A stretch of DNA of 64,000 nt, from contig CAYWIT010000015.1 in the NCBI GenBank assembly GCA_964458415.1, positions 3,192 to 67,191 on the forward strand, written 5' to 3'. Source of the stretch: an uncultured Rhodospirillaceae bacterium. Lineage in GTDB: Bacteria > Pseudomonadota > Alphaproteobacteria > Micavibrionales > UBA2020. Both the position numbers and the translations under genes were made by a program. Under the pieces are notes generated by a model. That model did no database searches. It was not told the origin of the DNA and saw only the letters and a program-made list of their open reading frames with translations. Below, in pieces: positions 21,965-43,513 of this stretch. Every line of letters starts with the position of its first letter. Position 1 is the first letter of the stretch.

Positions 21965-22570
21965 ATGGCGGCACCAATGATAGAAACGGATCTCATCGCC
22001 TATAACTTCAATCTGGAAACAAAAGATTTCATGGCTCAAATTGCGGACCTGCCACGCTCTCCGCTGGTGGGGCAAAGCTTCTTGCATGAGCTTGCGCGTG
22101 AAGGGGATATTCTCAGTGCGGAGATTATTTTCGAGGCGGGAGCCAGCATAGATTTACCGGATGACGAGGGGCGGCGCCCTTTGCATGAGGCGGCGGGGGC
22201 CGGTCAGCTGGAGATGGTGGCTTTTTTGCTGAAAGGCGGGGCTATCCTTGATGCGCCGATACATCCTTTTGGGCATACAGCCCTGTGGCTGTCGGTCAGG
22301 CAGGGGCATTATACTGTGGCCCGCTATTTAATCGAACAGGGCGCACGGCTTAATGTCGCCGATCGTCTGTCCGGACAGGGCTTGCTGCATCTTGCGGCGA
22401 CGGCGGGGGATATTAAAATGGCGGGAATCTTGATTGCGGCGGGGATCGACGTTTTTCATGAAGACGGGCGCGGGCAGACAGCGCGGGATTACGCGGCGCG
22501 CGGGGGGCACAAGCCGTTGGAAAAAATTCTGCTCAAGGTGATGTATCATCAGGCTTGTTATGGCGCATAA
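21965..22570 (+). CDS. Ankyrin-repeat protein (about 4 repeats), convergent with the lysis cassette
   Basis: GQSFLHELA, GRRPLHEAAGAG, GHTALWLS, GQGLLHLAA, GQTARDYA. Confidence 0.85.
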   Translation: MAAPMIETDLIAYNFNLETKDFMAQIADLPRSPLVGQSFLHELAREGDILSAEIIFEAGASIDLPDDEGRRPLHEAAGAGQLEMVAFLLKGGAILDAPIHPFGHTALWLSVRQGHYTVARYLIEQGARLNVADRLSGQGLLHLAATAGDIKMAGILIAAGIDVFHEDGRGQTARDYAARGGHKPLEKILLKVMYHQACYGA

Positions 22571-22773
22571 AAATAACCCGGGCATATTTCAAGCCAGAGC
22601 GCATTGTTGATATCTGCGGCGTGGCGCGTTTTCTCGGTATCCGCCGAAGAAGTGTAAACAGGCCGATAGAGGCTGCAAAAGTCACCGCGTGAATCTTTGG
22701 CGCACCCGTTTTGCATAGTCAGCGTCATGCTGCAAACGATCATGAACAGCCAGCGCTTTTTTGACAGCAGCAT
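22558..22773 (-). CDS. Putative outer-membrane spanin (Rz1-like lipoprotein)
   Basis: Signal-like N-term with GC, then DFCSLYRP...NNALWLEIC; overlaps the upstream i-spanin-like gene out of frame; lipobox atypical (MQNGC). Confidence 0.6.
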   Translation of the reverse strand: MLLSKKRWLFMIVCSMTLTMQNGCAKDSRGDFCSLYRPVYTSSADTEKTRHAADINNALWLEICPGYFYAP

Positions 22774-22891
22774 TGATTTCTTCCTCCTTGCCGGCGCGCT
22801 CTGCGGTTTTTCCTCCCCTGAAAGAAATCAGGACAAGAAAGCCCGTCAGGAACAAAAAAAACAGCATTCCGATAAAAATGAAACCTGTCAT
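22682..22891 (-). CDS. Putative inner-membrane spanin (Rz-like)
   Basis: N-terminal TM followed by a charged helical segment; ATGA-coupled to the holin-like gene. Confidence 0.6.
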   Translation of the reverse strand: MTGFIFIGMLFFLFLTGFLVLISFRGGKTAERAGKEEEINAAVKKALAVHDRLQHDADYAKRVRQRFTR

Positions 22892-23079
22892 TTAACGGCA
22901 TCCTTGCTGAAGGCGGCGATCAGTCCGGCGAGGGCCATGCCGAGGGCGATAACGGATTCCGTCTGCTCCGGCGAAAGCGTCAGGCCCAGCGCCACAAAAA
23001 GCGACGTCAGGCCCAGCCACGTCGAGCGTTCCTTGGCGCGGGAGGTTAGGTAGGCAATGAAAATCCTGAAAGTAAACAT
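22888..23079 (-). CDS. Putative holin
   Basis: 63 aa, two hydrophobic helices (ERSTWLGLTSLFVALGL; VIALGMALAGLIAAF), between endolysin-like and spanin-like genes. Confidence 0.65.
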   Translation of the reverse strand: MFTFRIFIAYLTSRAKERSTWLGLTSLFVALGLTLSPEQTESVIALGMALAGLIAAFSKDAVK

Positions 23080-23116
23080 GCAGGGCTCCTGTTGAAATCA
23101 GATCATGGGAAGGTCC

Positions 23117-23551
23117 TTAAAAGGAACGAATGGCTGCGGCGTAAAGTTCGTCGGGATACCATGCGGCAGGGTATCCTGCGGGCGGCGCGCCGTTTTCCTG
23201 TCGGATAATGGCGCGACAGAGCAAGGTCATTATCGTCGGGTTTGATAAATCGAGTTTGTCGCGCCGTCGGACACCGAGAGCGCGACAGACGGTGTGGATA
23301 TAATGATCCGTCGCATTTTCATGCGGCGGCGCATAGCGGTTGATAATGGTCTCGATTGTATCAAGGCCGTATTTGGCATGATAGGTCATCAGCGTTTTCA
23401 TCAGGGCGCGTAGCCCGAAAATCGCCTCGGAAAATTCAACAAAGGCGGGATCCGTCTGAACAGGCTTTTGACCGAGCCAGCGAGTTTTTGTCAGGCGCAG
23501 GTTACCCGGATTGTGATTGCGGATCCCGCGTGGCAGGAAGAGAGCAGCCAT
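23117..23551 (-). CDS. Putative endolysin (RNxNPGN lysozyme-like family, often labelled 'structural protein P5')
   Basis: PRGIRNHNPGNL...F..F.....GLRA...L..Y...YGL.TI..II.RYAP..EN.T..YI; SD GAGGA. Confidence 0.7.
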   Translation of the reverse strand: MAALFLPRGIRNHNPGNLRLTKTRWLGQKPVQTDPAFVEFSEAIFGLRALMKTLMTYHAKYGLDTIETIINRYAPPHENATDHYIHTVCRALGVRRRDKLDLSNPTIMTLLCRAIIRQENGAPPAGYPAAWYPDELYAAAIRSF

Positions 23552-23561
23552 GATCATGTCC

Positions 23562-23792
23562 TCAATTGTGTTTTTGGCGCAGGAGTTGTTCAATTCGCAA
23601 AATGCCGTCATTTAAATGCTCCAGATGTTGTTCCAGCGCTGCCAGTCTTTCGGCAGTGTGTTCGTTATGACTGATCCATTTCTCGATATGTTCGACGCGC
23701 TTTGTGATGGACGCGGCCCACCATACGGTCGTGACAAGGTGGATGCTAAGCGTAATGGAAAGGGTGATAAGTCCGATAATGTCGCCGGGCAT
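23562..23792 (-). CDS. Small membrane protein with coiled-coil tail (lysis-cassette associated)
   Basis: N-terminal TM followed by heptad-rich C-term; overlaps or abuts neighbours. Confidence 0.6.
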   Translation of the reverse strand: MPGDIIGLITLSITLSIHLVTTVWWAASITKRVEHIEKWISHNEHTAERLAALEQHLEHLNDGILRIEQLLRQKHN

Positions 23793-23794: not shown

Positions 23795-25141
23795 TTAAAG
23801 TTCCGCGTCGAAGTCAACGTAGTTTGCGGCACCGGTCGCCAGGGAGAGCGCATAGCTGTGGTTCGCGGTAAACCCTGTTTTTCCAGTGGCAATCGTCACG
23901 CCATTGGCATCAGCTTGCCCGGCGGTAATGTCGCCTGTTGTCAGGGAAATGCTGGCGCCGTTTCCTATGGCGGAAAGACCGGCGGCGGTGACCACGGGAT
24001 TGGCGCGCATTTTAACCGGGGCGGGCACGATAAATCGTGCAGCGGCGGTTGCCGTGGCGAGACCGCCGCCGATAACCGGCGCTGTTCCCGAAAGGCGCTG
24101 GTGGCGCAAAAAATAGCGTTTGCAAAGAATCTCCGTGACGGCGGCCGGCAGGTATTCGTATTCAGTCGCGTTTGCGCCAAGCTGGAGCTGTACATCGGAG
24201 ATATAAACGCTGTCATTCACCGTTCCGTCCCCGTTGTCGATCCAGATCAGAACGGCGATATTGCGGGTATTTGCCGTATCCAGATAGATGTTCTCGATTT
24301 TAAAAGTCTGGTAGCTGTTGGTGAGGGCAAGATTTTCCGGTGTGTTCTCATAGGTTGCCCCGGCAATCAGGATCGGATTGGTGCCTTCTGCGCCCCAGAC
24401 GCTGATCATATCGCTGGTGACAAGGTCGTCGCTGCCGGCGGACCAGGCAATGACGGCGGCCCGTAAGGTATCGACAGTGGCGTTGGCGGAGCCTTTGCGG
24501 GCCTTGAATGACAGGGAAACCGCCCCGCCGATAATGGCTTCGGCCTGCCGGGTTTCAACTATTTGCAACAGACCGCATTTTTTATTCGCCGTTTTGACAT
24601 CCAGACGCAAGGCGGCAGAGCTTCCGGGAGGTATGGTGCTTAAATCCTGTGCAAGATCGGTAATGTTGTTTCCGTCCGAAAGCAGCACCCATCTGTCGAA
24701 GGTATAGGTATCGTCGTTATTGGGCGGAACAGTCGTGCTGGTAAAAGCAGTGCCGCGCTGGCCGATGCGAAAATCGCCGTTAACAATGATGTTGCGGCAA
24801 AAAAACCCTTCGCTGGCCAGCAGATCGAAACTCGGCAGATTTGGACCTGATGTTCCTACTGTCTTAATCGCCGCATCGCCAAGCGCGCTGCCGTCCCGAT
24901 AGGGGATAAACTGGTTTGTCGCGGCATTGACGGAGCCGCAGATCATCCAGTCCGCGCCGTCGTGGATTTTTAAAAGCCAGGGCGTGGCGGCGTCGTCAAG
25001 CCAGACTGTTCCGGACTCGGCATAGGCGGGCGCCGTGGCGCCCTTGTGGTGGTTGAGTAGGGCCTGCTTGCCGTCATTGTCTTCCTGACGGTAGACCAGA
25101 CCGCTTTTGTTGGCTCCGATAACGGGGTTTGCCTGTGTCAT
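23795..25141 (-). CDS. Tail fibre / receptor-binding-like protein
   Basis: N-term ALLNHHKGATAPAY...VWLD attachment segment; RNIIVNGDFRIGQRG...YTFDRW domain; C-term LCKRYF...MRANPVV...DAEL typical of phage fibres; follows J-like gene. Confidence 0.75.
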   Translation of the reverse strand: MTQANPVIGANKSGLVYRQEDNDGKQALLNHHKGATAPAYAESGTVWLDDAATPWLLKIHDGADWMICGSVNAATNQFIPYRDGSALGDAAIKTVGTSGPNLPSFDLLASEGFFCRNIIVNGDFRIGQRGTAFTSTTVPPNNDDTYTFDRWVLLSDGNNITDLAQDLSTIPPGSSAALRLDVKTANKKCGLLQIVETRQAEAIIGGAVSLSFKARKGSANATVDTLRAAVIAWSAGSDDLVTSDMISVWGAEGTNPILIAGATYENTPENLALTNSYQTFKIENIYLDTANTRNIAVLIWIDNGDGTVNDSVYISDVQLQLGANATEYEYLPAAVTEILCKRYFLRHQRLSGTAPVIGGGLATATAAARFIVPAPVKMRANPVVTAAGLSAIGNGASISLTTGDITAGQADANGVTIATGKTGFTANHSYALSLATGAANYVDFDAEL

Positions 25142-25171: not shown

Positions 25172-28100
25172 TTAGACGGCTTCGCCGTAGCCTTGGGCGA
25201 GGTAGTCAAAGGTGCGGGAAATTCCCGTGCCGGAACTATTGAAGAACTGGATGCTGAATCCGGCGGCCGTCTGGGCGGTAATGGCGTAGTAATCGCCGCT
25301 TTGCATGTTTTGCGCGGTGATGGACAGGGCGGGAACGGCACGGAAGGGGCGGTCAAAAGCAACGGCACTACCGGTTATCGCCGCTGTGATGTTTCCAGCT
25401 CCGGCAGTCCGGTCCGGCATATCAATATTGATGCGCAGTCGTGACAGGGCGGGTGTGACGTTGGCGGCATAACTTTGGATGATAACGCGGAACTCATAGG
25501 CGCGGGCGGTATAGTCGCCCACCACAAAAGGCATCCAGGGTGTCCAGTCTGGTCCGGCGCCGGGATTGTCCTTTGTTGTGCGGAGCTGCAACCCAACGGA
25601 CCAGAGGGAAGGATCAGCGGCTTCGTCAAAGCTTTCCAGCGCGTCGATATTGTCGCGATTGTCGATCGTTCCGTTCAGATCAAGGCCTTCAACAAGAAGG
25701 TCCGCCGTCAGGCGGGAGGTATAGACGGCTCCCAGATCCGCCGTATTGGCAAAATTATAAATGCCCGACGATAACAGGCCGGCATCACCGATATCCACGT
25801 TGACGGTATTGTCAATATTTTCCCAGTTATCAAGGCTGTCTATGCCATTCAGCTGCAGCAGAGGGCCGCTTCGTTCCAGCCCGTCGCGTGTTCCGGCAAA
25901 GGCGCTGTCCTCGCTGACGGTCAGGATTGCGTTAAATCCGCTCAGGGCGGCAATAGTGGAAGTGACCTGCGCGGCGGTTGCGCTCATGCGGCCGCCGGTA
26001 TCGACGGCCTTAAGAAAATAGGTGCCGACCGCCGCAGGAATGCCGAGTGAACTGGAATCCATGGCAATGCGTGAAACGATATCCACGGCGCTGCTCCAGT
26101 TTGCGCCGGTGATAGCGGGTGAAAACCGCAGCACATAATGGCTGAGATCAGGATCGGTGACGGGCATCCAGGAGAGATAAGCCGTTTGCCCGAGAATATT
26201 GAGGGTTACATTTTCGATGTCCGAGGGCAGTGCCGTTGTTCCGGTGACGCGATGGCCGGAGATTGCAAGCGGGGATGAATGCGCCCCTGCTGACGTTATA
26301 TAACGGATCTGCAGGTCATAGCTTTCTCCTTCCGTAACGTCCGTCACGGAAATCCTGTTTTGTGTCCGGCCCAGAATTTCGGCGGGGCGAAAAGACGTTT
26401 CATCGGCGGCCCGGATCAGAACCTCGGTATCAAGAAAGGATGAAAATGCCGGAGGCTGCAGGGTGACAAGAATGCGGCTTGTCAGTGATCCGTCGGTCTG
26501 GCGAATCAGAACCTCCTCGCCGGACTGGATTTGCGACAAAACCGGCGTGGGCGGCCGCTGCATGTCGGACGGCATGGTGATCTGGCTGGAGAAAGCGGGG
26601 ATGGCGCCGTTTCCGGCGTCATGGACTGCCGGGGCGGCATCAACGCAAACAATCCGCGCGCTCAGGTTTGATTGCGGTTCGATGGATTTGACGATCAGTT
26701 CGACGCTCTCGCTGCCGCTCTCGCCGAAAATGACCAGATCGCCGGCATGTGGCGCTTCCGTAAGAGGAATCGGCGTCGCGAGGGATAAAGTGGAAGACCG
26801 TCCTTCTTCTGTTGTAACGGAAAGGAGGAGGGAGGTGCCATCAGTTTGACGGATGCGCAGGGCATAATTTTTTCCGGCCGCCATTGTCATTTCCGCGTCC
26901 AGAACAAGGCCGGTAGCCAGCGCCGGTGCCTCGCCATTGTCGATGACGGTTTTGACGCGGGCGCCGGCGAGTCCGAACAAGGGGACATCGTGGCTGAAAC
27001 GGATCAGGTCGCCGCGTGTGCAAACGATATGCTCGATGTCCGTATAAAATATATAATTTTCTGGCCGCAATTTTGCCGTGGCGATGTGATAGCGCCCGTC
27101 CTGCCAGGCCTGCTCTGCGGAGGTAACGCCTGTCAGGGAAAGAGAGTCATAGCGAAGCGCGGTTGTTTCATCATAGCCGTCGTCAAAAACCAGCCGTTCG
27201 TCCTGCAGCCAGCCTTTCTCGCGATTGATAAAGCGGACGCGCAGGGCATGCGGGATGTCGTCAAAGGATTTTTGTCCCTGAAAGCGAAAAGTATTTCTCG
27301 GGGTAAAGTGCTGTACTGGAATGGTTTGCAGCCTGTCTTCAACCACCGTCCATTTTCCGTCCTGCAGGGCCGGGCTGGCCCGGCCAGCGGCAGCAACGTC
27401 CTGAAGAACTTCCTGTACGGAGATATCGTAGTCGATGATGGCGTTAAATTCGCGTTCCGTCGCCGCGCAGGCCTCATGCCAAATCCTGATTTTTTCAAGG
27501 TCAAGACGGCTGTCGGCAAGAGGGCGCGCATTGGCCTTTCCCTGCAGGACATGGCGGAAAAGTGCCGCCGGATTGGCTGTAACCTGTTCCACCCAGGCGG
27601 TGCCGTTCCAGTCCGGAAGAATGGAATGGACCACGCCATTAAACCGGTCAATCAGGCCGTTCAGCTGATCCGTGGCGCGGATGCGCAGGGCCGTCATCGC
27701 AATTCCGGTCATTTTGACGGGGGTGGCGCTGCGAATGGTGCGGAGCGCTGTCCAGACCGTTTCATCGAAAGTATTGTCGTCTGTAGCGTCCTTTGTCAGG
27801 CGGCGAATTCTGACATCGTATTGTCCCTTGGCAACGCGGAAGCTCACGGATTTCCGCAGCGCGGAGGATTGCTTGGCGGAAACCAGCAGCCCGGTAAATT
27901 GCAATCCGCCCGCGGCGATGTCGATTTTATCTGCGGTTGTTGCCGGCGTCGCCAGAAAATCCCCTGCCGTTTGAAAGCTTGCGCCAAAAAGACTGCTTTT
28001 GCGTTCATCGGTGATTTTTGAAGCAGGGATGACGGCTGCGTCGCCGGATTGACGCTCTACCCGCGCAATGGCCAGAAAGCCTTTTGGCACTGCGGGCGGC

Positions 28101-29266
28101 GAGGCTTCTTTCTTATCCAGCCCGACACGGAAAGGGACGCCCTGAAGAATTTTACAAGCGCCGCTGGCAGGGTCGAGTACGATACGATCGATACGGCGGA
28201 CGGGGTAGCTACGATTTGCGCGGATATAGGGGGACGGTCGCGGAAAATTTCCCTGAACGGTCGCTGCAATGGCTTTATATCCGGTGGCGGGTGCGCTCCA
28301 GTCGTTTGTTCCGGTCGGGGCGCACTGGATTTCCAGCTGTATGGTGGCGGTGGTTTTGGCATTAGCGGCATTGAATTTGAACAATCCGCGCGGCAGCGTG
28401 ATATCCAGCGAGATTTCCTCGGCATCGGCTTCGGTCGTGCGCGTGATAAAGCCGTCAGCCTTGCGCAGGCCGACCTGCAAATCGTTTTGCAAAACGCTGT
28501 TCGTATAAAGGGTCAGTGGCGTGTCGTTCTCATAGCCAAAACGTGTTTCGATTTCAATATCGTCAAAATCGGCAAGCGGCGTCTCGCCGATCTTGAGATC
28601 GTTGATATGAAGCGGGCCGTATCCCCAGATGAACAGCATGCGCAGATATTGATCTTTGCCGACGGTTTCCGTGTAGGGCAGGGCCCCTAGGGGGGGAACC
28701 ATTCTGTGCTGGCCCAGAACGTGCGGCACCCGGCCAAAGGGAACCGCCTGATTTCGGGCGCCCTGAATAAACAGGGAGGGACTTTCCTTGCCAAGGGCGG
28801 AGAATCTGGGACGGGCAGGCGGGGCCAGCGCGTTCAGGGCCAACCGGCCTAGAAGATTGACGCCGGTTGTAATCAGCCGGCCTGCACCGATGCCAAGGAA
28901 GGTTGTGCCGGCAGAAACGCCCAGCGCGCCGGAAATACCGGCAGCCAGCGCGGGGCTGGCGGCCAGAATAGCAAGAGAAAGAACGGTGCGGAGCGGGTTT
29001 TTTCCGCCACCCCCGCCGCCCATGGGCACCATGCGCAGGCTCAGGGTTGTGCCGGCCTTGGGGTAAATGCGCGCGAGATGGTTATTGGGCAGGGCATGGC
29101 CGTCAAGAAAGGCGTGAACATGGCGGCGGAGCAGGGGGTCCGGCTGAAACAGGCGAATCATCTCCGCAACGGATTTACCGGTTGCGATCTGACGGTGAAT
29201 GCGTTCCACGGCGAAAGGATGCGTGGCTGCCGTCACGGCAAAAAAATTATTCGTCGGGTTGTTCAT
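25172..29266 (-). CDS. Central tail fibre / host-specificity protein J-like with N-terminal lambda gpI-like domain
   Basis: 1364 aa; N-term ubiquitin-like segment ending PMGGGGGGKNP; PFGRVPHVLGQHRMVPPLGA; FnIII-like repeats; ends FDYLAQGYG. Confidence 0.85.
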   Translation of the reverse strand: MNNPTNNFFAVTAATHPFAVERIHRQIATGKSVAEMIRLFQPDPLLRRHVHAFLDGHALPNNHLARIYPKAGTTLSLRMVPMGGGGGGKNPLRTVLSLAILAASPALAAGISGALGVSAGTTFLGIGAGRLITTGVNLLGRLALNALAPPARPRFSALGKESPSLFIQGARNQAVPFGRVPHVLGQHRMVPPLGALPYTETVGKDQYLRMLFIWGYGPLHINDLKIGETPLADFDDIEIETRFGYENDTPLTLYTNSVLQNDLQVGLRKADGFITRTTEADAEEISLDITLPRGLFKFNAANAKTTATIQLEIQCAPTGTNDWSAPATGYKAIAATVQGNFPRPSPYIRANRSYPVRRIDRIVLDPASGACKILQGVPFRVGLDKKEASPPAVPKGFLAIARVERQSGDAAVIPASKITDERKSSLFGASFQTAGDFLATPATTADKIDIAAGGLQFTGLLVSAKQSSALRKSVSFRVAKGQYDVRIRRLTKDATDDNTFDETVWTALRTIRSATPVKMTGIAMTALRIRATDQLNGLIDRFNGVVHSILPDWNGTAWVEQVTANPAALFRHVLQGKANARPLADSRLDLEKIRIWHEACAATEREFNAIIDYDISVQEVLQDVAAAGRASPALQDGKWTVVEDRLQTIPVQHFTPRNTFRFQGQKSFDDIPHALRVRFINREKGWLQDERLVFDDGYDETTALRYDSLSLTGVTSAEQAWQDGRYHIATAKLRPENYIFYTDIEHIVCTRGDLIRFSHDVPLFGLAGARVKTVIDNGEAPALATGLVLDAEMTMAAGKNYALRIRQTDGTSLLLSVTTEEGRSSTLSLATPIPLTEAPHAGDLVIFGESGSESVELIVKSIEPQSNLSARIVCVDAAPAVHDAGNGAIPAFSSQITMPSDMQRPPTPVLSQIQSGEEVLIRQTDGSLTSRILVTLQPPAFSSFLDTEVLIRAADETSFRPAEILGRTQNRISVTDVTEGESYDLQIRYITSAGAHSSPLAISGHRVTGTTALPSDIENVTLNILGQTAYLSWMPVTDPDLSHYVLRFSPAITGANWSSAVDIVSRIAMDSSSLGIPAAVGTYFLKAVDTGGRMSATAAQVTSTIAALSGFNAILTVSEDSAFAGTRDGLERSGPLLQLNGIDSLDNWENIDNTVNVDIGDAGLLSSGIYNFANTADLGAVYTSRLTADLLVEGLDLNGTIDNRDNIDALESFDEAADPSLWSVGLQLRTTKDNPGAGPDWTPWMPFVVGDYTARAYEFRVIIQSYAANVTPALSRLRINIDMPDRTAGAGNITAAITGSAVAFDRPFRAVPALSITAQNMQSGDYYAITAQTAAGFSIQFFNSSGTGISRTFDYLAQGYGEAV

Positions 29267-29287: not shown

Positions 29288-29701
29288 TCAACGCAAGGGG
29301 CTGTAGCGATAGAAACCGCTGATCCGCCGGCTCCAGCGGTTTTCACGGTAACGTTCAATGACGCTGTTGATATTCCATTCGATATGCAGCATCTGGCCAT
29401 CGCCAAGGACAAGACCGACATGCATGGGCTGGCCATTCAGTCGCAGGAGAATCAGGTCGCCAAGAATTTCCGTGTCGGCAGGAATGGCTTGCCAGAGAAG
29501 GGCTTCCCTTGTGATCAGTGCGCCAATACGGGCGGTTTCCGTTGTGCGGTCATATTCATGGACATAAGAGGGCAGGGCTATGCCGAATTGCTCTGCCAAA
29601 ACCAGTCGTGTCAGACCCCAGCAATCAAGCCCGCTGCGGTCCCGGCCATGATCCTTGAAGGGCAGTCCGATATAATGTCCTGCCCAGAATGGAATGGGCA
29701 T
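29288..29701 (-). CDS. NlpC/P60 tail-associated peptidase (lambda gpK-like)
   Basis: YIGLPF...GRDRSGLDCWGL (catalytic Cys), HVGL, MLH. Confidence 0.9.
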   Translation of the reverse strand: MPIPFWAGHYIGLPFKDHGRDRSGLDCWGLTRLVLAEQFGIALPSYVHEYDRTTETARIGALITREALLWQAIPADTEILGDLILLRLNGQPMHVGLVLGDGQMLHIEWNINSVIERYRENRWSRRISGFYRYSPLR

Positions 29702-29723
29702 GGAGGCTGTGCTTTCTGGAATT

Positions 29724-29757
29724 GAAAAACCCGCCGGATTGCTCCAGACGGGTTTTC
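29724..29757 (-). terminator. Intrinsic terminator inside tail operon
   Basis: Minus strand: CCCGUCUGGA-GCAA-UCCGGCGGG then UUUUU; GNRA loop; flanking A/T tracts make it potentially bidirectional. Confidence 0.75.
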
Positions 29758-29782
29758 AGAAGAATAAAGGTAAAGAGTTGTG

Positions 29783-30067
29783 TCAGCTCATCATGCCGGT
29801 TGTTGGTTTGACGGTGCGGGATTGTGCCGGTTTCATTTCAGTGGCCGTGGAAGACAATTTGGCAACATAAGACTGGAATTTTTCCGGATTTGTTTTATCT
29901 GGATTAGCGGCGACATAGTCATTCATGCCCTTGATGGTGGCTTGCGCGTTTTGCGAGAGGCCGCCGCGGGTATCTTCTCCAATCAGGGAAAGGGATCCCA
30001 GCAGGTATTTCCCCGCCTCTGTATTGGTTGCACCGCTAACGAATTGCGATTTGATACCACCGTTCAT
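29783..30067 (-). CDS. Hypothetical 94-aa protein, moron-like insertion
   Basis: SD GGAGGG; AT-rich upstream gap (30121-30236); own terminator; no virion-protein features. Confidence 0.6.
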   Translation of the reverse strand: MNGGIKSQFVSGATNTEAGKYLLGSLSLIGEDTRGGLSQNAQATIKGMNDYVAANPDKTNPEKFQSYVAKLSSTATEMKPAQSRTVKPTTGMMS

Positions 30068-30236
30068 ATTTCAAGCCCTCCAGCCCGTCGTTTGCTTACG
30101 GGACAGTTTCAAACTGTTTGATTAACCGCCCGATTATTAGCTTATTTTTACTACTTTATCCCAGTTTTTTAAATTTTACCATAAGAAAAATAAACAAAAT
30201 ATGAATACTATGAAAAAAGTGTGTTACCTCAAGATG

Positions 30237-31773: not shown

Positions 31774-31796
31774 ATCGCTCTGGCGGCCCGGGCTGC

Positions 31797-32965: not shown

Positions 32966-33038
32966 GATATCTGGCCTTTGAAAGTTTGGTAAAAACGCTT
33001 ATTTTTAAACAAGGTTGTTTTATTGTCCGGAGGGCTTC

Positions 33039-35215: not shown

Positions 35216-35240
35216 GAAAAATCCTTTCATTTATGCGTTA

Positions 35241-36699: not shown

Positions 36700-37389
36700 T
36701 TAATTTCCGGCCAGTCGCCGGAGCGTCTCCGTCAGCGCCGTAATGGCGTGAAGGTCGTCATCGTCTCCGCTTGCAGCCGCTTCCCGCGGCAGGAGGGATT
36801 TGTAGCCAAAGGAGAGAAGCCCTTTGGCTTGTTTGCGGCTCAGGCCTGCTTCCCGCAGGAAGGCCTCAAATTCACGTTCGGTGGGAACCCCTCCGGCGGC
36901 AAATGCCGATTTGACGCGCAGGATTCGTGCCGCGTCATTGGCCGGAAAGGTGACCATGGAAACCTCCAGCAGCGCGATATCCGTCAGGATACGCACACCG
37001 GATTTTTCGTCGAAATGGGATTCTCTTGTCCTGTAACCGATCGAGAGGCCGGTGACGACATTTTCGCGCAAAAGCTTCCAGGCCTCTTTTGCCCGCGGGA
37101 TATCATTGATAAAAAGCTCCCCCTTGACAAAAAGGCCGTGATTGTCCTCATGCATGTCCCGCCATGCTCCCAGCGGCTCCCGTATGTCATGCTGCCAGAG
37201 CAGCGGGGGCAATCTGTGCTCCGTCCTGAATTCCTGCAGGCTCTTGCTGAAAGCGCCTGGCGCAATCCTGTCGTGGACGGCATCGGTCATGTCAAAGACC
37301 GAGGCATATCCTTCAAAGACACCGGTTTCGGCAATGAATTTCAGTTCAAGCGGACTGTCAAAATGCGGATAAGAAAACAGGGATGTCAT
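36700..37389 (-). CDS. HK97-family prohead protease (RcGTA g4-like)
   Basis: FEGYASVF..D...D.I.PGAF, LLWQHD, GLSIGY, LLEVSMVTFPAN. Confidence 0.95.
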   Translation of the reverse strand: MTSLFSYPHFDSPLELKFIAETGVFEGYASVFDMTDAVHDRIAPGAFSKSLQEFRTEHRLPPLLWQHDIREPLGAWRDMHEDNHGLFVKGELFINDIPRAKEAWKLLRENVVTGLSIGYRTRESHFDEKSGVRILTDIALLEVSMVTFPANDAARILRVKSAFAAGGVPTEREFEAFLREAGLSRKQAKGLLSFGYKSLLPREAAASGDDDDLHAITALTETLRRLAGN

Positions 37390-37413: not shown

Positions 37414-37758
37414 TCAGGAAATAACCGGATCAATTTGAATCGGCCCTTCGGCAACGATCAGTCCGTCGCCGTTTTTCGTGATTTTAAGCTGGGCGAAAAA
37501 AACGCCGCGCAGAGGGCTGCCTTCCGCGGCAAGCTCCGCTGTATTGAAAGTGACAGAGGCGATATTGCCGGAAAGCGTTATGCCTGCGGTCTGCGTTTTT
37601 GTCACAAGTGCGGGTTCATCGGCATGGCGGGCAATTTTGTAAGTCGCTTCCGCGCCGTCAACGGGAACGGCGAGGCCGTTTTGATCGGTAATGGTAAAGA
37701 CAATATTGACCGGCTCCCCGCTTTTGGCGGAAATCAGGTTGTGTTTGATGCTGTGCAT
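37414..37758 (-). CDS. Ig-like / BppU-like virion accessory protein
   Basis: SD GAGG; SGE...I.FTITD..G..VP..GA.ATY.I pattern; beta-rich. Confidence 0.55.
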   Translation of the reverse strand: MHSIKHNLISAKSGEPVNIVFTITDQNGLAVPVDGAEATYKIARHADEPALVTKTQTAGITLSGNIASVTFNTAELAAEGSPLRGVFFAQLKITKNGDGLIVAEGPIQIDPVIS

Positions 37759-37766
37759 AAAGCCTC

Positions 37767-37985
37767 TCAGAACGAAATGGTAACGGGAATATTCTCGTCT
37801 TTGGAATAAAGCGCCTTTGCCGTTGTTGTGGCGGCAAAACACGCGGTATTGGCAGCGGTCTTGTCGAAAACTGCTTTGAGCGCAAAAACGCGATGGTGCA
37901 GGTAAAACGGCAGATCTGCCAGAGGGGAGATAGCAGTTCCTTCACTGCCGCCGACCGGCATGGTGCCAATGGCAAATCCTGGCAT
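37767..37985 (-). CDS. Small hypothetical virion-associated protein
   Basis: N-term MPGFAIGTMPVG resembles the G-F-x-P starts of small phage structural proteins; SD AAAGGA; tight packing. Confidence 0.5.
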   Translation of the reverse strand: MPGFAIGTMPVGGSEGTAISPLADLPFYLHHRVFALKAVFDKTAANTACFAATTTAKALYSKDENIPVTISF

Positions 37986-38009
37986 GGTTGATCCTTTAGG
38001 CCTGATGTT

Positions 38010-39074
38010 TTATGCGATCCAGGTATATGAACTGCCGGTTGTTCCGCCGCCACCGCCTGTGGGAAAGTCTATGGCGGAGATCAGGAGCCCGACCGCGGCG
38101 ATCCTTGTTGTGTCGTCAGTCCAGTCGCCTGTTCCCGTGGGGTCCTTGGCGCTGGTATAAAAACCGCGCACCCCATGCGTGTCTTGCGCCCGTATTGCGG
38201 CGCTGGCGTATTCACGGTAATAAAACGACAGGTTTGTAGCGGATGAAGGCTCGACGGCGATTCGATAATCGGTATTCGCCGAAAGCGCGACTTCTGCCGT
38301 AAAAAGCCGGTAGTTGAGCGTTCCTGTCGCGGTAACTGGCGTGTTGTCATCGTTTGTTACCGCAGCCAGCACCGTTACCCCGTCGGAATCGTACAGCTTT
38401 ATGACGGCAGGTCCGTCAAAGTCAGCAACGACCCATATTCCACTGGCTTTTGCGGCGTAGGGAATGTTGATAACGTTTCCGATAACGTCTGGCGTCGAGG
38501 TGTTGTTATAGGTTGCAAGGTAATTTGTGCTTCCTACGCCATGAATTCCCTCCATCGGGTAATATCCGTTGGTGGAAAAGTAGAGCGCGGCGACAATGCC
38601 GGCAGCTGTGAAAGAGGCCCAGGACGTTGTATATGCGGACAATGTGGGAAAGCCGAGCTTGTCAAATTCGGAACCGGTGGAATAATGTATTTGTCCGGCA
38701 AAAGTTCCGCTGCCTCTGGTGATGACGACCGCAAATATATCTCCAGCCGTCAATGCCGCACCAGCGGTCAGCGTTACTTCAAACCATGTATTATCGTCGG
38801 TGGCGTTGATTGTTTGCGTTACATTGGTATTGGTTCCCCAAAGCGTGCCTGTCGGAAATCCGCTGCTGTCAACGGTCTCGATTCTGATATCAAGATCGCC
38901 GCTTGTCGTCACTGTTTTGGTAAAAAAGCCGACTTTGGTCAGGGTGTCTGTAACGGGGGCATTAAATATGAAAGCTGTCTTTTCACCATCGGCGTCAATT
39001 GTGGTATTTCCCAGTGACGGAATGCCCCCCATGGCTTTGGGAATTTCCAACCCGTAAATGGTCTGATACGTCAT
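38010..39074 (-). CDS. Beta-rich fibre/spike-like virion protein (354 aa)
   Basis: T/G/A/S-rich with two similar halves (TLTAGAALTAGDIFAVVI; EVALSANTDYRIAV); ends GGGGGTTGSSYTWIA; visibly lower GC. Confidence 0.6.
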   Translation of the reverse strand: MTYQTIYGLEIPKAMGGIPSLGNTTIDADGEKTAFIFNAPVTDTLTKVGFFTKTVTTSGDLDIRIETVDSSGFPTGTLWGTNTNVTQTINATDDNTWFEVTLTAGAALTAGDIFAVVITRGSGTFAGQIHYSTGSEFDKLGFPTLSAYTTSWASFTAAGIVAALYFSTNGYYPMEGIHGVGSTNYLATYNNTSTPDVIGNVINIPYAAKASGIWVVADFDGPAVIKLYDSDGVTVLAAVTNDDNTPVTATGTLNYRLFTAEVALSANTDYRIAVEPSSATNLSFYYREYASAAIRAQDTHGVRGFYTSAKDPTGTGDWTDDTTRIAAVGLLISAIDFPTGGGGGTTGSSYTWIA

Positions 39075-39173
39075 GCTGTTGCCTCGATTTCAAATTTGAA
39101 GGGCCGGTCATTGCCGCCAACGGCTATAAAATTCCGGCGGCGCATTCTGCCGAAAATTTCAGGAGGGTATAGA

Positions 39174-40373
39174 TCATGTTCGCGTTCCTTTCACAATGAC
39201 TGAAACTTTCGTCACGGTTGTCGCGCTATCGACGTTAAAGGCGATGACATCACCGGCAGAGACGGCTGTCGTCCATGTGGAAAGGGCATTATCCTGATTT
39301 TTCTGCGCGGAGGAAAGCGTCGGCTTTTCTGTGCCGGCAATCGTGTCGGCCGCCGTCGGCGGAAAGTTGGCGTAGCTATCTTTCCAGACATCGATAATAA
39401 TTGAGCCGGGTTGATCGGCGAGGATATCCCATCCCGTGACAGTCATCGCGTAGGGAACTGTAATATAGCCTTTCACGCCTGTCGTAATCGCGGTGCCGCC
39501 GCCATCGATCGTGATGCCGAACGCCGCAGCCAGAACATTGCCTGAAGCCGAAATTGTCGGGTTTCCCGAGACGCCATCTCCGTCCGAAACTGCAATCCCC
39601 GCGCCAGCAGTAATTGTGCGGCCGGTAAAGGTATCGGTGGCGATCTGTGTCAGCAATCCGCTTGCACTATGGGCGGCCAGCGCAGTCAGGGTAGCGTCGG
39701 CGGGCTGGTACACGCCGTTGTGGTTATGCGCCGCAGCGGCATAGCGGGCATCGGCATCCGCCCGCGTCGGGATATCGCTTGCGTTCGCAACGCCCATCAG
39801 GCGTTTGGCGAAGATATCCGCCGCTGTTTGCTCTATCAGGCCAGCTGTTGCGTCAAGCCCTGCCAGAGAGGTCAGGGTTGTATCCGCGGCCTGCTTGGCG
39901 GCAAGCAGGGTATCTGTTTGCGGGGCGGTGTAGTAATTGACGGCATTTTGTGCCGCCATGGTGCCGGCATCGCTGATCTGAGCCAAAAGATGCGTGTGGC
40001 CCAGAGAGGCTTTGCCATCAAGGGCGGCCTGCAGTCCGGAGACGCTGGGAATACTGAGGGGCAAAATAGCCTGATATTGCGTAGGGATATCGTTTATCGC
40101 CTCTTTTTCACCGGCAGAAAAATTGACAGCGGTGCCGCTGTTGCTCGAGGCTATGATAGTATCACGGGCAAGGGTCGTCGCATCCTGCAAGTGCCCGGTT
40201 CCGATCTCCCATTCAGACGCCGTTGTATGGCTGATGAAATAGAAGAACATATCGCTGCCGCCGGTACCAAAGGCCTGATAAAAGGATTGCCGGCCTGCCA
40301 GCGCGGATAGGGTGATATTCCCCGCTCCTTCCGAGGTTGTGCGTTGATGCACAAGGTTTGATATCAGTGCCAT
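39174..40373 (-). CDS. Modular fibre-like virion protein (399 aa)
   Basis: N-term MALISNLVHQRTT..G.G.ITL...EWEIG.G...TL.RDTI..SSN.G.AVNFSAG.K (widespread phage fibre N-domain); internal repeat; C-term GITIDGGG.AITTG.KGY domain. Confidence 0.7.
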   Translation of the reverse strand: MALISNLVHQRTTSEGAGNITLSALAGRQSFYQAFGTGGSDMFFYFISHTTASEWEIGTGHLQDATTLARDTIIASSNSGTAVNFSAGEKEAINDIPTQYQAILPLSIPSVSGLQAALDGKASLGHTHLLAQISDAGTMAAQNAVNYYTAPQTDTLLAAKQAADTTLTSLAGLDATAGLIEQTAADIFAKRLMGVANASDIPTRADADARYAAAAHNHNGVYQPADATLTALAAHSASGLLTQIATDTFTGRTITAGAGIAVSDGDGVSGNPTISASGNVLAAAFGITIDGGGTAITTGVKGYITVPYAMTVTGWDILADQPGSIIIDVWKDSYANFPPTAADTIAGTEKPTLSSAQKNQDNALSTWTTAVSAGDVIAFNVDSATTVTKVSVIVKGTRT

Positions 40374-40420: not shown

Positions 40421-41629
40421 CTAGCCGAGGTTGTCGCCGCCCTTCAGGGGGGGCAGGCCGAATTTTTCTCTTTTTTCGTTAACCGTCATAAATCCGGCGC
40501 TTGATATTTTTTCCCAGTAACGATCCCGCCGCGGCGCCAGCGCCTCGATTGCGTCCAGATCAAAATCAAGAACAAGATTTTCACCGAATTTTGGCGCCAG
40601 CCAGCCGTTGAATTCGTCACGGATATGGCCCAGCAGGGGCAGCACGGCATCATCGAAGAGCGCCAGACGGGCTTGTTCAAAGTTGGCAAAGGTCAGCGAG
40701 CCGTCAATGCCGATAAGTTGGGGCGGAATGTGAAAGGCCAGCGCGATTTCGCGTGCCGAGCCGTCCTTGCCGGCGAGCCAGTCCATTTCCTTTGGCGAGA
40801 GGGACATTTCCCGCCAGTCCAGCCCGCCTTCAAGAACAAGCGGGCGGCCGGCATTGGCGGAGCCTGAAAAATACTGTTCGAGTTCCGCCTTCAGGGTTTG
40901 CCGTTGTGCTTCTGTCAGGCTATCCGGAGAATCCGGATGGGCGGGGTTAAAGACCAGTGCGCCGGAGGGGCGTCCGCTCATCTGCAAAAGCGCGGCGTTC
41001 CATTTCGCGGCATCATTATGCTGGTCGATACTAATGGCCGCGGCCTCCAGCGGGCTCATCCCGTACCAGTCGTCCAGCGGATGGAAAGCTTTTAAATGCA
41101 GGATTTCAGCCTGTCCGGTCAGCGGGCTGGCCGGAAATTCAACGGTTCTTCCGCCAGCCTGATAACGGTAGGAAGCTGGCAAACCGTGATTGCCGGGCAC
41201 AATACGCATCCGGTCCGGGCGCAAGGCCCAGAGTTCAAGCGGCGGGCCGCCGCCGGGGCTGACAGCTTCGATATAGCTGTTTCCGGAGATCAGGTAAAAT
41301 CCAGCCAGCGCTTCAAAGAACTCGGCCCGTGCTTGCAGTGGATTGGGCCGTGCCAGCAAGGAAAGCAGGGGGTGGTCTGTTAGTCTTGTTTTTGTTTCTC
41401 CGCCGGTTTCAAAAAGCCGCCAGGGAACAGAGGCCAGATTCTGGCTGATCAGCTTGATACAGCGATAGGCGATGACGTTTTTCTGGAAGCCTTCCTCGGC
41501 AAGCCGGTCGTACTGGCGCGGCGTGAAGCGGGCCTGCCGCGTACCCAGTTGTACCAGTAAAGGGCCGGTCCGGCTGGCTTTGGCTTCGCGCCGTAAGAAA
41601 CGGTCAAAAGGATTGAAGGCGCGCGTCAT
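40421..41629 (-). CDS. Portal protein, HK97 family (RcGTA g3-like)
   Basis: EEGFQKNVIAYRCI; HPLL.LL.RPNP; LRPDRM; LHLKAFHPLDDWYGMSPL; RPSGAL; GIDGSLTFANFEQAR. Confidence 0.96.
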   Translation of the reverse strand: MTRAFNPFDRFLRREAKASRTGPLLVQLGTRQARFTPRQYDRLAEEGFQKNVIAYRCIKLISQNLASVPWRLFETGGETKTRLTDHPLLSLLARPNPLQARAEFFEALAGFYLISGNSYIEAVSPGGGPPLELWALRPDRMRIVPGNHGLPASYRYQAGGRTVEFPASPLTGQAEILHLKAFHPLDDWYGMSPLEAAAISIDQHNDAAKWNAALLQMSGRPSGALVFNPAHPDSPDSLTEAQRQTLKAELEQYFSGSANAGRPLVLEGGLDWREMSLSPKEMDWLAGKDGSAREIALAFHIPPQLIGIDGSLTFANFEQARLALFDDAVLPLLGHIRDEFNGWLAPKFGENLVLDFDLDAIEALAPRRDRYWEKISSAGFMTVNEKREKFGLPPLKGGDNLG

Positions 41630-41648
41630 GAATGTCTCCTTTGGAAAA

Positions 41649-43085
41649 TCAGCCTCCCCAGACGCGGGGGCCGTTGTGGGGTCGTTGCGACAGCAGCAGA
41701 TCCGTTATCGCCCAGACCCGTGCATCGACGCGGTCCGGGCTTTTGCCGTTGATAGCCGGATTAAAGCGGCACAGCTGGTCTTCCAGCTGCGGGAAATGCC
41801 CTGCATGGTGAATACGTCCATCGGCGTCGAGGGCGGCCACCGGTTCCGCGCGTATAATTTTCCCGCGGCTGGCATGAACGGCTTTGTAGGAAACAGCGGC
41901 GTCAAAGCTGCGCAAGGTATGCGCGACAAGATCGCCGCCCTGATTGACTTCCGCGACAACGCGGTCCGCCTGATAAATGTGGTAGGCCTCAATGATGCGG
42001 CGCGCCCATTCCGCCGGGGCATAGGTGCCGCTCAGATCGGCCAGAATATAGGCATGGTCGTCCGTGCCGAGACCTGCCACGATAATTCCCGTTTCGTCGC
42101 TTTTCTCATGGCTGGTGACAGCGGGATCCACCGCGACAATGATGCGGCGGAATTCCGGCAGGGCGTGGGAAGGGCGGCGGTTGCGGTCAAGCATGTCACG
42201 GGTCCAGAGCGCGCCGGGGGCAGCGGAATCGAAAGCTTCTTCCACCGTTGCGGGGTATTCGCGGCGAAAGGTCCAGATATTGCCAAGTTCGGATATTTTA
42301 ATCTGCCGCCAGAACATCTGGGCCGGATCAAGACCGAATGTTTCCGCATAGCTGCGCTCTTCCGGGGTCAGCTGGAAATCCGCGGGGGGCATCCTGCGGT
42401 ATTCGTCCTGCCAGAACCAGGGCACGAAGATAAAGCGAAAGCTGGAAGCGTTATGCAGCGCGTCCTGCGCCAGCGTGTAGAAAAATCCCGCGTCCCCCGC
42501 AGAGGTGCTCTCCAGAATGATCTCAGTGTCCGGCAGATCCGGCACGGCTTGCAGAATGCCGGAAATATGTTCCTCGGCGTGGGGCCAGAAGGCGACTTCC
42601 GAGCCGTGAAAATACTGCAAGGTGGCGGATCTGCCGATGCCCTGCGCGCGGGCGGTGCCGACGGAATAGCCACTGTCTAGCCGGTCAAAAACAAGCTCCC
42701 GGCTGTTGGCAAGAGAGGTATGCGGCCGCACGGGAACGGGGCAGTGGTCATGGAACCGTCGTGCGATCTGGTAGATATTGCGCGAAGCTTCCTCCAGATG
42801 CGTGAGGATAAAAGCCCGCACGCCCTTGCGGTGGCTGACTTTCCAGTAAAAGCGGGCCTCGACATAGGTCGAGCAGCCCTGCTGCCGTCCTTTCAGGATA
42901 ATGGCACGGATGCGGCCCTCCTTCTGCAGCTGTTCCTCAAGGGCCCGGTGAATGAATTGCTGGGCCGTATTGAGGGCAAGCGGCAGGATCTGGCCATTTT
43001 TACTGCGGATCTTCAGGCATTTTTCGGCGTAGTGGACAAAGTCGTTTTTTAGCCGCTGGCGGAGCCGGCGTTCCCGGAGGTTCAT
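41649..43085 (-). CDS. Terminase large subunit (apparently chimeric ATPase + GTA-type nuclease)
   Basis: Walker A region LKGRQQGCSTY; Walker B FHGSEVAFW; EST coupling motif; nuclease IVAVDPAV...DETGII...AEVNQGG...RAEPVA...SPDRVDA. Confidence 0.93.
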   Translation of the reverse strand: MNLRERRLRQRLKNDFVHYAEKCLKIRSKNGQILPLALNTAQQFIHRALEEQLQKEGRIRAIILKGRQQGCSTYVEARFYWKVSHRKGVRAFILTHLEEASRNIYQIARRFHDHCPVPVRPHTSLANSRELVFDRLDSGYSVGTARAQGIGRSATLQYFHGSEVAFWPHAEEHISGILQAVPDLPDTEIILESTSAGDAGFFYTLAQDALHNASSFRFIFVPWFWQDEYRRMPPADFQLTPEERSYAETFGLDPAQMFWRQIKISELGNIWTFRREYPATVEEAFDSAAPGALWTRDMLDRNRRPSHALPEFRRIIVAVDPAVTSHEKSDETGIIVAGLGTDDHAYILADLSGTYAPAEWARRIIEAYHIYQADRVVAEVNQGGDLVAHTLRSFDAAVSYKAVHASRGKIIRAEPVAALDADGRIHHAGHFPQLEDQLCRFNPAINGKSPDRVDARVWAITDLLLSQRPHNGPRVWGG

Positions 43086-43098
43086 GGGTGAAATCCTG

Positions 43099-43389
43099 TT
43101 ATTCCAGCAGGCCCAGCGCTTCTTCATGCGGCGCGCCATCGATTTCGGGCGCGGTGCGGCGGGCGGCTTCCGAAATATCCGGCAGTGTTTTTTTGAGCAG
43201 GGCCAGCGCCGCGCTGACCTGTGTCGAGGTCATCTCTTTCTTGCCGAGAACATGTTGTTCCAGCGCTTCGATCAGGGCATGCACATTGATTTTGTCACGC
43301 AGGTTTTTTTCGGGGGTCTTTTTTTTCGGGGATTTTTTCAGGCGTCGCGTCGCCGGACGCCTTGTTTTGGAGTCTTTTTTTGCGGGCAT
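43099..43389 (-). CDS. Putative terminase small subunit
   Basis: Immediately upstream of terL; basic N-term; L..HVLG..EMT.TQV.AA..LLKKTLPD motif. Confidence 0.6.
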   Translation of the reverse strand: MPAKKDSKTRRPATRRLKKSPKKKTPEKNLRDKINVHALIEALEQHVLGKKEMTSTQVSAALALLKKTLPDISEAARRTAPEIDGAPHEEALGLLE

Positions 43390-43454
43390 GGGAAATGGGG
43401 AATGAGGGTATAAAAAACGCGGCATCCGAAGGAAATCCGCGTGGTGTCTACATT

Positions 43455-43513
43455 TGCTCATTTACAATTCTTGAGCATGAATAAATCATGCCAGAAATGA
43501 TCCCGGCCGTCAA
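43455..43513 (-). promoter_or_regulatory. Putative promoter of the virion cluster with overlapping inverted repeats
   Basis: Minus strand TTGACG (43513-43508)-N17-CATGAT (43490-43485); GCATGA-N5-TCATGC (43475-43491) and TGCTCA-N11-TGAGCA (43455-43477). Confidence 0.5.

Follow-up and report, generated by a model that had tools for sequence, protein, structure and literature searches.

A candidate gene-transfer-agent-like particle operon with a lambda-type tail tip in a Micavibrio-like bacterium

We analysed a stretch of 64,000 nucleotides (the window) from an uncultured Rhodospirillaceae bacterium (GenBank assembly GCA_964458415.1, contig CAYWIT010000015.1), in which about 30 co-oriented genes on the minus strand, at positions 22558-44083, make up a full complement of phage genes for head, tail and lysis. 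The series that leads from the small terminase gene (terS) to the lysis genes is transcribed from about 43461 down to 22558; it had been described in an initial annotation of the same DNA as an operon resembling that of a gene transfer agent (GTA), and it does exist at that place and on that strand. The interpretation that we favour, with somewhat better than even confidence, is that the cluster is a domesticated GTA-like particle operon of Micavibrio-like bacteria, derived from a prophage and maintained by its host, with a lambda-type tail tip, linked lysis genes and a very short tail, and separate from RcGTA, the gene transfer agent of Rhodobacter capsulatus. If so, the operon could build and release small siphovirus-like particles, but could not replicate, excise or lysogenise by itself. 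As a candidate for a new lineage of gene transfer agents we regard the cluster as credible, albeit unproven.

Layout and parts of the virion gene cluster

Support for gene families was drawn from Pfam, NCBIfam, PHROG and PDB sequence searches of the window proteins, combined with the open reading frames (ORFs). The parts of the cluster are given below in the order of transcription, with E-values after the names of matching families (aa, amino acids).

44135..44650, minus strand: secreted Cys-motif protein, 171 aa, with a signal peptide, a C-x(n)-C motif and a basic tail; paralogue of the 43556..44083 product
43556..44083, minus strand: 175-aa secreted protein, Ala/Pro-rich and with the Cys motif, encoded directly 5' of terS; read from the sequence
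43099..43461, minus strand: putative small terminase, terS, assigned from position only; conserved in 25 loci
41649..43139, minus strand: large terminase, terL (Terminase_6C, 7.9e-18; PHROG terL families)
40421..41629, minus strand: portal (PF04860, 1.9e-84; RcGTA portal, 3.6e-95)
37414..40373, minus strand: variable interval with four genes, for products of 399, 354, 72 and 114-142 aa; cargo of a fibre-like or virion-structural kind
36700..37389, minus strand: S78 prohead serine protease (PF04586, 2.8e-33; TIGR01543, 6.1e-35)
35369..36673, minus strand: HK97-fold major capsid protein (PF05065, 4.2e-84; TIGR01554, 4.8e-108; RcGTA capsid, 3.8e-83)
34766..35230, minus strand: conserved 154-aa protein encoded 3' of the capsid gene (phrog_5707, of unknown function, 3.6e-13); in 34-37 loci
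34038..34676, minus strand: head-tail adaptor (PF05135; gp6/TIGR02215, 3.3e-37; weak match to the RcGTA adaptor, 1e-2)
33715..34041, minus strand: head closure protein (PF05521, 2e-20)
33015..33740, plus strand: secreted Sel1-repeat protein (PF08238, 3.2e-17) with a signal peptide, antisense between the head-closure and tail-terminator genes
32552..32965, minus strand: tail terminator or completion protein, gp17/DUF3168 (PF11367, 9.5e-28; RcGTA terminator, 2e-3)
32123..32539, minus strand: tail tube protein, TP901-1-type (PF06199, 8.2e-24; RcGTA tube, 3.7e-13)
31558..32120, minus strand: two small genes in chaperone position (107 and 71 aa), otherwise assigned by position only
31070..31558, minus strand: short tape-measure-like protein, 162 aa, assigned by position and a weak C-terminal match to the end of the tape measure family phrog_1538 (5e-4)
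29288..31057, minus strand: tail-tip assembly genes, for a 116-aa minor tail protein (phrog_384), a DUF1833 protein, a 94-aa conserved unknown and an NlpC/P60 protein
30237..30710, minus strand: among these, the DUF1833 minor tail protein, gpL-like (phrog_396; PF08875, 4.7e-17)
29288..29701, minus strand: also among these, the NlpC/P60 peptidase, gpK-like (PF00877, 7e-15)
25172..29266, minus strand: TipJ-related central tail-tip/host-specificity protein, 1364 aa (NF040662, 4.1e-58; PF24801; PF13550)
23795..25141, minus strand: tail fibre, 448 aa (phrog_4492, 5.6e-35); 266-448 aa among relatives
22558..23792, minus strand: lysis cassette, with a 76-aa membrane/coiled-coil protein, the endolysin, a 63-aa holin-like protein with two transmembrane segments, a 69-aa transmembrane protein and a doubtful overlapping ORF of 71 aa
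23117..23548, minus strand: endolysin of this cassette (phrog_873, 3.8e-50; PDB 7q47 and 9vvp)

Most of the labels given in the initial annotation (terL, portal, protease, capsid, adaptor, closure, terminator, tube, tip, fibre and lysis) are borne out by family matches; terS had no match in Pfam, NCBIfam or PHROG. A relative that is 99.4% identical carries a 1-bp indel at 43418 and has a terS gene call of 96 aa. Because of this indel, we place the real start of terS downstream of the annotated one, probably near 43389, which would give a product of 96 aa. Upstream of terS, neither of the secreted Cys-motif proteins matched a family in Pfam or PHROG, and tblastn found relatives of the 44135..44650 protein at 14 loci. 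Almost every related locus, with or without ankyrin genes, has upstream of terS a gene of this kind, encoding Cys-x(n)-Cys and then a Lys/Arg-rich stretch, and both genes (43556-44083 and 44135-44650) probably belong to the unit formed by the cluster.

Podophage terL proteins share 46% identity with the N-terminal ATPase domain of terL (residues 26-340), and none of the phage proteins aligns with terL over >80% of its length. At loci whose portal is 50-55% identical to that of the window, the similarity of terL is confined to its C-terminal (nuclease) half. Judging from these alignments, terL is a mosaic in which the ATPase and nuclease domains have different relatives, in agreement with the swapped terminase ATPase that had been proposed earlier.

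The interval between portal and protease had been described as four fibre genes. This fits one of them (39174-40373), which gave a weak PTR match along with matches to phrog_10330, phrog_35197 and a tail-fibre family, but not the other three; 37414-37842 matches phrog_1084, and in relatives the interval measures 0.3-2.8 kb, with little of it conserved. The label "decoration" for 34766-35230 had to be softened to that of a conserved unknown, the product of which had no match in the PDB. The PDB sequence searches also returned nothing for terS, terL, the four interval genes or the protease. As for the tape measure, the C-terminal family match agrees with the earlier label, weak as it is and short as the protein is. 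One of the two ORFs in chaperone position (31797-32120) has a weak match to PF11836 (GTA-gp10; 1.2e-3), which is below threshold.

Downstream of the tape measure, the family searches recovered a lambda-type order of tail-tip genes (phrog_384, DUF1833/phrog_396, NlpC/P60, TipJ-related), and both this tip and the linked lysis genes are as previously claimed. None of the tip genes matched the gpM Pfam family, and a gpI-like part was seen only as a weak Lambda_tail_I match in the N-terminus of the J protein of one relative. The small ORFs of the lysis cassette were read from the sequence, and relatives have a matching layout.

Two long ORFs on the plus strand, 35303-36607 and 36748-37809, are antisense shadows of the capsid and protease genes. 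Shadows of this kind recur in relatives, where they inflate naive ORF lists, and they were masked before unmatched ORFs were compared.

Host surroundings, conservation and selection

The cluster is intact and self-contained, as the initial annotation had held. Both flanks were scanned and yielded only housekeeping, ankyrin, FHA and trypsin-like genes, and we therefore conclude that about 20 kb on either side are free of integrase, repressor, recombinase and replication genes; Pfam and PHROG scans detected none across the entire window. The right-flank ORFs without a Pfam match, and 17650-18642, had no PHROG match either. An exact-sequence look-up with the last gene of the window matched no record. 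The hallmarks of a prophage (an integrase or transposase, a repressor, a replication module, att repeats) are all missing from the window, in which a search for att-like repeats of the tRNA-Leu region gave only chance matches of ≤12 bases and an Rfam scan found tRNA only.

To place the cluster among its relatives, we scanned one genome per species and found portal relatives in 188 genomes. The 37 best of these (62-72% identity) are almost all metagenome-assembled genomes (MAGs) labelled Micavibrio, Bdellovibrionales, Rhodospirillaceae or Alphaproteobacteria. NCBI files Micavibrio under Bdellovibrionales, and by the labels of its nearest relatives (Micavibrio, Bdellovibrionales or Alphaproteobacteria) the host organism is Micavibrio-like, as had been supposed. 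We define the family as 49 loci with a portal identity of ≥62%, made up of 37 species-representative genomes and 12 IMG/VR contigs, each a different assembly; the best 80 genome loci also come each from a separate assembly. Far from being confined to a single strain, the cluster is present in 37 further species-level genomes, and three independent sequencing samples (SRR32672039, SRR11845633 and SRR33312803) contain the species of the window itself, its locus set in an unchanged context. Carriers of the locus include the contigs CBIHNF010000001.1 (2.2 Mb) and JAQSDV010000004.1 (1.35 Mb).

Among ~45 loci (cited by our own L numbers where one has to be singled out), none has replication or lysogeny genes beside an intact cluster. 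In five relatives the downstream flanks contain ankyrins, TetR, an M48 peptidase, clpB, gyrB and recF, and neither an integrase nor a replication gene. In branches without ankyrin genes, ordinary host genes confirmed by Pfam directly abut terS, namely sdhA and a 5'-nucleotidase gene in L005, genes for an ECF sigma factor and a phosphopantetheinyl transferase in L007, rpsA in L022, tilS in L023 and priA in L025, to which sdhB, cmk, mscS and uvrA can be added from reading by eye only. In the window as in its relatives, particle genes are housed in a host chromosome without genes for replication, integration or immunity.

Translated searches with all window proteins revealed a gene order common to the family, which takes in the conserved unknown 3' of the capsid gene, the tip (DUF1833, NlpC and TipJ) and the lysis genes. 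The ~30 genes are intact in the window and in the majority of the 24 loci whose sequence continues for 10 kb beyond the portal on its downstream side. Capsid relatives are 70-84% identical, and in three relatives whose gene calls were read, the tape-measure equivalents are 105-157 aa long. The Sel1 gene occupies the same site, on the opposite strand, in 28 family loci and is absent from L094 and L095. The order of ankyrin orthologues upstream of terS is kept in 22-26 loci, about half; a 779-aa ankyrin protein retains ~40% identity over its full length across loci; and an opposite-strand Ank gene of ~200 aa follows the lysis genes in all five relatives examined (L164, L165, L166, L171 and L172). 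A tree of terL, portal and capsid groups the loci that have the 779-aa ankyrin gene at their flank, the window among them, in one large clade, a pattern that would fit co-inheritance of the cluster with its chromosomal neighbours. The synteny that had been suggested as a check is found in the gene order of the cluster, but not in its wider chromosomal position.

We compared the divergence of the virion proteins with that of PmbA, a host enzyme encoded in the left flank. The nearest well-sampled relatives have a PmbA that matches that of the window at 72% identity (82% in one short contig), and identities to relatives are 65-72% for PmbA, 64-72% for the portal, 58-68% for terL and 65-84% for the capsid. 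Genomes in which PmbA could be matched to a cluster gave the following values.

GCA_046314385.1 (L032), same assembly: PmbA 71%, portal 67%, capsid 80%, terL 64%
CBIHNF (L024): PmbA 65%, portal 67%, capsid 81%, terL 65%
A MAG that is probably that of L021 (linked only by a shared "Patescibacteria group" label): PmbA 68%, portal 68%

Because the identities of PmbA and of portal, capsid and terL are similar in matched genomes, the virion proteins have diverged about as much as the host enzyme. Within the species, the L001 copy is 99.36% identical over 13.4 kb. Against this copy the ratio of non-synonymous to synonymous substitution rates (dN/dS), also among the checks first suggested, is 0.13 for terL, portal, protease and capsid together (from small counts, 19 synonymous and 8 non-synonymous), 0.29 for the genes of the variable interval and 0.07 for the ankyrins, and the core genes are under purifying selection. 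Composition is that of the host: the cluster and the housekeeping flank both have a GC of 0.562 and the ankyrin array one of 0.564, and the codon-usage cosines between cluster, host flank and ankyrin array are 0.97-0.98.

The immediate neighbours of the cluster in the window are as follows.

20984..21068, plus strand: tRNA-Leu(CAG), 1.5 kb from the 3' end of the cluster, with exonuclease and ankyrin genes between
21965..22570, plus strand: 201-aa ankyrin protein (Ank families, 1e-22), conserved 3' neighbour of the cluster and convergent with it
44652..54573, minus strand: co-oriented ankyrin-repeat array (Ank families, down to 1e-95), conserved 5' neighbours that may lie outside the element

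The exonuclease gene, of the 3'-5' type, lies between tRNA-Leu and the 201-aa ankyrin gene. Beyond it, the left flank (1-20.8 kb) consists of housekeeping genes only (porin, PBP1, thiolase, hemY/hemD, ispH, xseB, ispA, dxs, pmbA and a GGDEF response regulator), with an ankyrin gene also found among them at 15050-15517, and ORF 67-1716 on the plus strand is junk-like sequence with no family match. The right flank (44.6-62 kb) carries at least 11 ankyrin-repeat genes (to 62136), most of them co-oriented with the virion genes and interrupted by FHA and trypsin-like protease genes. Such richness in ankyrins suggests a bacterium that deals with eukaryotic cells. The FHA gene (with a YscD-like cytoplasmic domain) and the trypsin-like protease gene form a pair at 55506-57988 on the minus strand, 12 kb upstream of terS; in L171 (19260-20450) the pair is on the other side, ~9 kb downstream of the lysis genes, which suggests local rearrangement rather than independent insertion.

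Some relatives depart from the layout of the window. A paralogue of the GTA-gp10-type chaperone (PF11836, 28.4 bits), which the window does not have, directly follows the portal in L010 (11197-11508) and in 28 other loci. In L025 (11744-12508), L033 (7253-8032) and L093 (4595-5347), a 259-aa tape-measure-like gene comes after this portal-side paralogue, the chaperone and tape-measure genes that normally come after the tube are missing, and it seems that the pair has moved. In some relatives (L037, 2218-4785; L036, 3524-5536; L038, 1434-4490), the cluster is adjoined by genes for a type IV secretion coupling protein and for giant proteins with DUF4116 repeats; the giant proteins have, by eye, a glycosyltransferase-like C-terminal part, which would make their genes effector-like. 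A second type of head-tail cluster is found in L041-L083 (e.g. L049, L060), which are from further MAGs, some Micavibrio-like and some of the Rhodospirillaceae or Kiloniellaceae. This type has a portal with 50-55% identity to that of the window and up to 53% to that of RcGTA, a terL with a different N-terminal domain, and no ankyrin or Sel1 neighbours.

Possible function and competing explanations

As a domesticated GTA-like operon, the cluster would be switched on by a host signal, with transcription starting upstream of terS. TerS and TerL would fill HK97-fold procapsids through the portal, the S78 protease would mature these procapsids, and the adaptor, closure and terminator proteins would link the head to a very short tail, the length of which would be set by a tape measure of ~160 residues. 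The lambda-type tip (a protein in gpM position, the gpL-like DUF1833 protein, the gpK-like NlpC/P60 protein and TipJ), together with the variable fibre, would bind and open the envelope of the recipient, and the producer cell would be lysed by holin and endolysin. We infer that particles of this kind are produced, that they would carry DNA of the host rather than of the element, and that host regulators would control them, as GafA/GafYZ or CtrA do in known cases.

A number of findings weigh against this interpretation. No regulator gene was recognised in the 64-kb window, and head size, and hence packaging capacity, is not readable from sequence, nor does the short tape measure bear on it. Most of the remaining points bear on an alternative that we consider possible, though doubtful, in which the cluster belongs to an ordinary temperate siphophage family of Micavibrio-like bacteria, as an active or recently inactivated prophage that spread by infection and not by descent. 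Its lysogeny and replication modules would then have been lost, would lie beyond the ankyrin array, or would be supplied in trans by a helper.

Chromosomal context bears on this alternative in two ways. In three relatives the exo-GGDEF-PmbA block adjoins kpsF-lptCAB-rpoN and not the cluster, and since the block continues in this manner, the cluster and its ankyrin neighbours must occupy another chromosomal site in the genome of the window. In GCA_046314385.1, PmbA and portal are on separate contigs, and the downstream contexts of relatives are of at least three types. Such differences between genomes favour infection. However, specific ankyrin orthologues and the antisense Sel1 gene remain attached over the entire 65-72% host range, and a divergence like that of housekeeping genes, across hosts that are 65-72% identical, would need an implausibly broad and ancient phage-host association. 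Correlations between the distance matrices of different cluster genes are no more than moderate (Spearman 0.05-0.77), as would suit a phage family. Gene-by-gene congruence was set aside as a test of descent versus transfer, the matrices of small proteins being too noisy to decide.

Gene content, too, can be read both ways. Active phages also typically have linked lysis genes, a fibre that varies and an interval of variable cargo, IMG/VR lists such contigs as viral, and the portal and capsid are as close to those of real phages as to those of RcGTA. An integrase-family fragment lies 4.5 kb upstream of L033, a locus that has no terminase, and a CI/LexA-like HTH-S24 repressor-like gene lies 4 kb downstream of L165. 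What argues against a siphophage family is that housekeeping genes, and in none of the ~45 loci life-cycle genes, border an intact cluster, that 20 kb on each side are clean in the window, that the composition is identical to that of the host, and that the best 80 genome loci are all from different assemblies.

Two further proposals concern the ankyrin and Sel1 genes. The more far-reaching one, which strikes us as rather unlikely, is that the cluster represents an independently domesticated GTA lineage ancestral to a large Micavibrio-like clade and co-evolved with these genes, so that its particles would serve association with eukaryotes or prey besides, or instead of, DNA exchange. In the other, to which we would give a slender chance, the particle would be kept for interaction with a eukaryotic host or prey and not for DNA exchange, with the ankyrin array and Sel1 functionally coupled to it, loosely like the eukaryotic association module of phage WO. 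Linkage over family-level divergence, with the ankyrin array at the 5' side, the ~200-aa ankyrin gene at the 3' side and the secreted Sel1 gene inside, speaks for such a role, as do the ankyrin gene elsewhere in the genome (15050-15517) and the type IV coupling protein near the cluster of one relative; moreover, a repurposing of GTA genes retained in endosymbionts has been raised as a possibility (George et al. 2022, PMC9254644). Yet linkage is all that this proposal has to build on, the virion genes are kept in branches without ankyrins (L005, L007 and L025) or without Sel1 (L094 and L095), and purifying selection on terminase, portal and lysis genes points to particles that are filled with DNA and released by lysis.

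Pseudogenised orthologs in relatives had been named at the outset as a sign against domestication; most copies in the longer loci are intact, and the damage, which counts against a maintained operon, is found in L033, in L028/L171 (NlpC, J and fibre lost, protease split) and in L172 (split J). Partial capsid and protease matches were seen in L031. That the cluster is a decaying cryptic prophage, functionless and preserved by chance, is highly improbable despite these few damaged copies, given the intact genes in the window and in most of the longer loci, the low core dN/dS within the species, and an order and reading frames kept across hosts that are only 65-72% identical in PmbA.

Should the cluster be a domesticated GTA-like operon, it would stand for a further independent domestication of a tailed phage, one that spans dozens of Micavibrio-like species and uses a tail tip and terminase of another type, and would provide a mechanism of gene exchange for poorly known predatory or host-associated bacteria. 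A comparison with RcGTA could then bring out recurring features, for instance shortness of the tape measure, a composition like that of the host and the loss of life-cycle genes. If it is a phage family instead, that family would be widespread and undescribed, and its constant ankyrin and Sel1 company would need explaining. The steadiness of this company is to us the most intriguing loose end.

Comparison with RcGTA and other known systems

Of the known types of element, a tailocin was ruled out by the capsid, portal and terminase genes, a capsid-forming phage-inducible chromosomal island (cf-PICI) or other satellite by the full tail and tip set and the lack of integrase and replication genes, and a Mu-like transposable phage by the lack of a transposase.

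The initial annotation had seen a match to the RcGTA head-tail cluster, and this likeness stands as far as gene order and the head, neck and tube proteins are concerned. Like RcGTA, the cluster is a chromosomal head-tail operon without replication or lysogeny genes, conserved across many species, with the same gene order from terminase to tape measure, a TIGR02215-type adaptor and a short tape measure. Homologues of the RcGTA head, neck and tube genes (g2-g10) are present in RcGTA order, the g10-type chaperone only weakly so. RcGTA chains (PDB 6TBA and related) are the best solved-structure match for portal, capsid, tube, terminator and adaptor, because few such structures exist. The cluster is, however, no closer to RcGTA than to phages: the portal is 44.8% identical to that of RcGTA and 46.5-47.5% to those of the best phages, in a comparison with one GTA sequence, and the capsid is 44.5-45.5% identical to phage capsids (Azospirillum phage Cd, 45.5%). 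RcGTA g12 (distal tail), g13 (hub) and g15 (megatron) had no match at E up to 0.1, nor was there an NCBIfam or Pfam family of such a kind. Because no RcGTA baseplate gene is present, we do not regard the cluster as a member of the RcGTA clade with swapped parts; by these comparisons it is a phage-derived lineage separate from RcGTA, and not an RcGTA derivative.

The lysis genes of RcGTA lie elsewhere in the genome, away from its head-tail cluster, whereas those of the present cluster are linked to it. The cluster also differs from RcGTA in its lambda-type tip (DUF1833, NlpC/P60 and TipJ), in the relatives of its terL ATPase, in the additional genes between portal and protease and in the antisense Sel1 gene. 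Its tape measure, at 162 aa, is shorter than that of RcGTA, which has ~216 residues and goes with a tail of 49 nm (PMC7296036). RcGTA-type GTAs, with a head-tail cluster of g1-g15, are found in Rhodobacterales, Caulobacterales, Rhizobiales and Sphingomonadales, and RcGTA-like clusters have been reported only within one alphaproteobacterial clade (PMC5721377; PMC6821227, clade 4 of Kogay et al. 2019). Micavibrio is outside this clade and has at most small clusters (Shakya et al. 2017, PMC5721377). The host of the window is likewise outside it, its nearest relatives being labelled Micavibrio, Bdellovibrionales or unclassified Alphaproteobacteria.

Partial GTA clusters are known from endosymbionts of the Rickettsiales and Holosporaceae, in which tail parts are usually absent and the terminase may be unlinked (George et al. 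2022, PMC9254644). These share with the present cluster GTA-like head genes under purifying selection and hosts that are eukaryote-associated Alphaproteobacteria from outside the classical GTA clade; for the Micavibrio-like host such an association is suggested by ankyrin and Sel1 content only. The Micavibrio-like cluster differs from them in having a full tail, tip, fibre and lysis cassette.

Among phages, the tip module of lambda-like siphophages (gpM-gpL-gpK-gpI-gpJ) resembles that of the cluster in gene order, in NlpC/P60 and in the TipJ-family protein, and Azospirillum phage Cd and Bradyrhizobium phage ppBeUSDA76-1 resemble it in the capsid (44.5-45.5% identical) and in a lysis cassette that ends the late operon. 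In contrast to lambda-like and temperate siphophages, the cluster has no early, immunity, integration or replication region, its tape measure is of 162 aa instead of many hundreds, and in dozens of species host genes surround it. Wolbachia phage WO, a complete temperate phage, has a recombinase, and some branches of the present family, unlike WO, have no ankyrin neighbours. Nevertheless, compared by layout and not by sequence, WO and the cluster of the window are alike in carrying ankyrin-repeat genes directly beside their virion genes.

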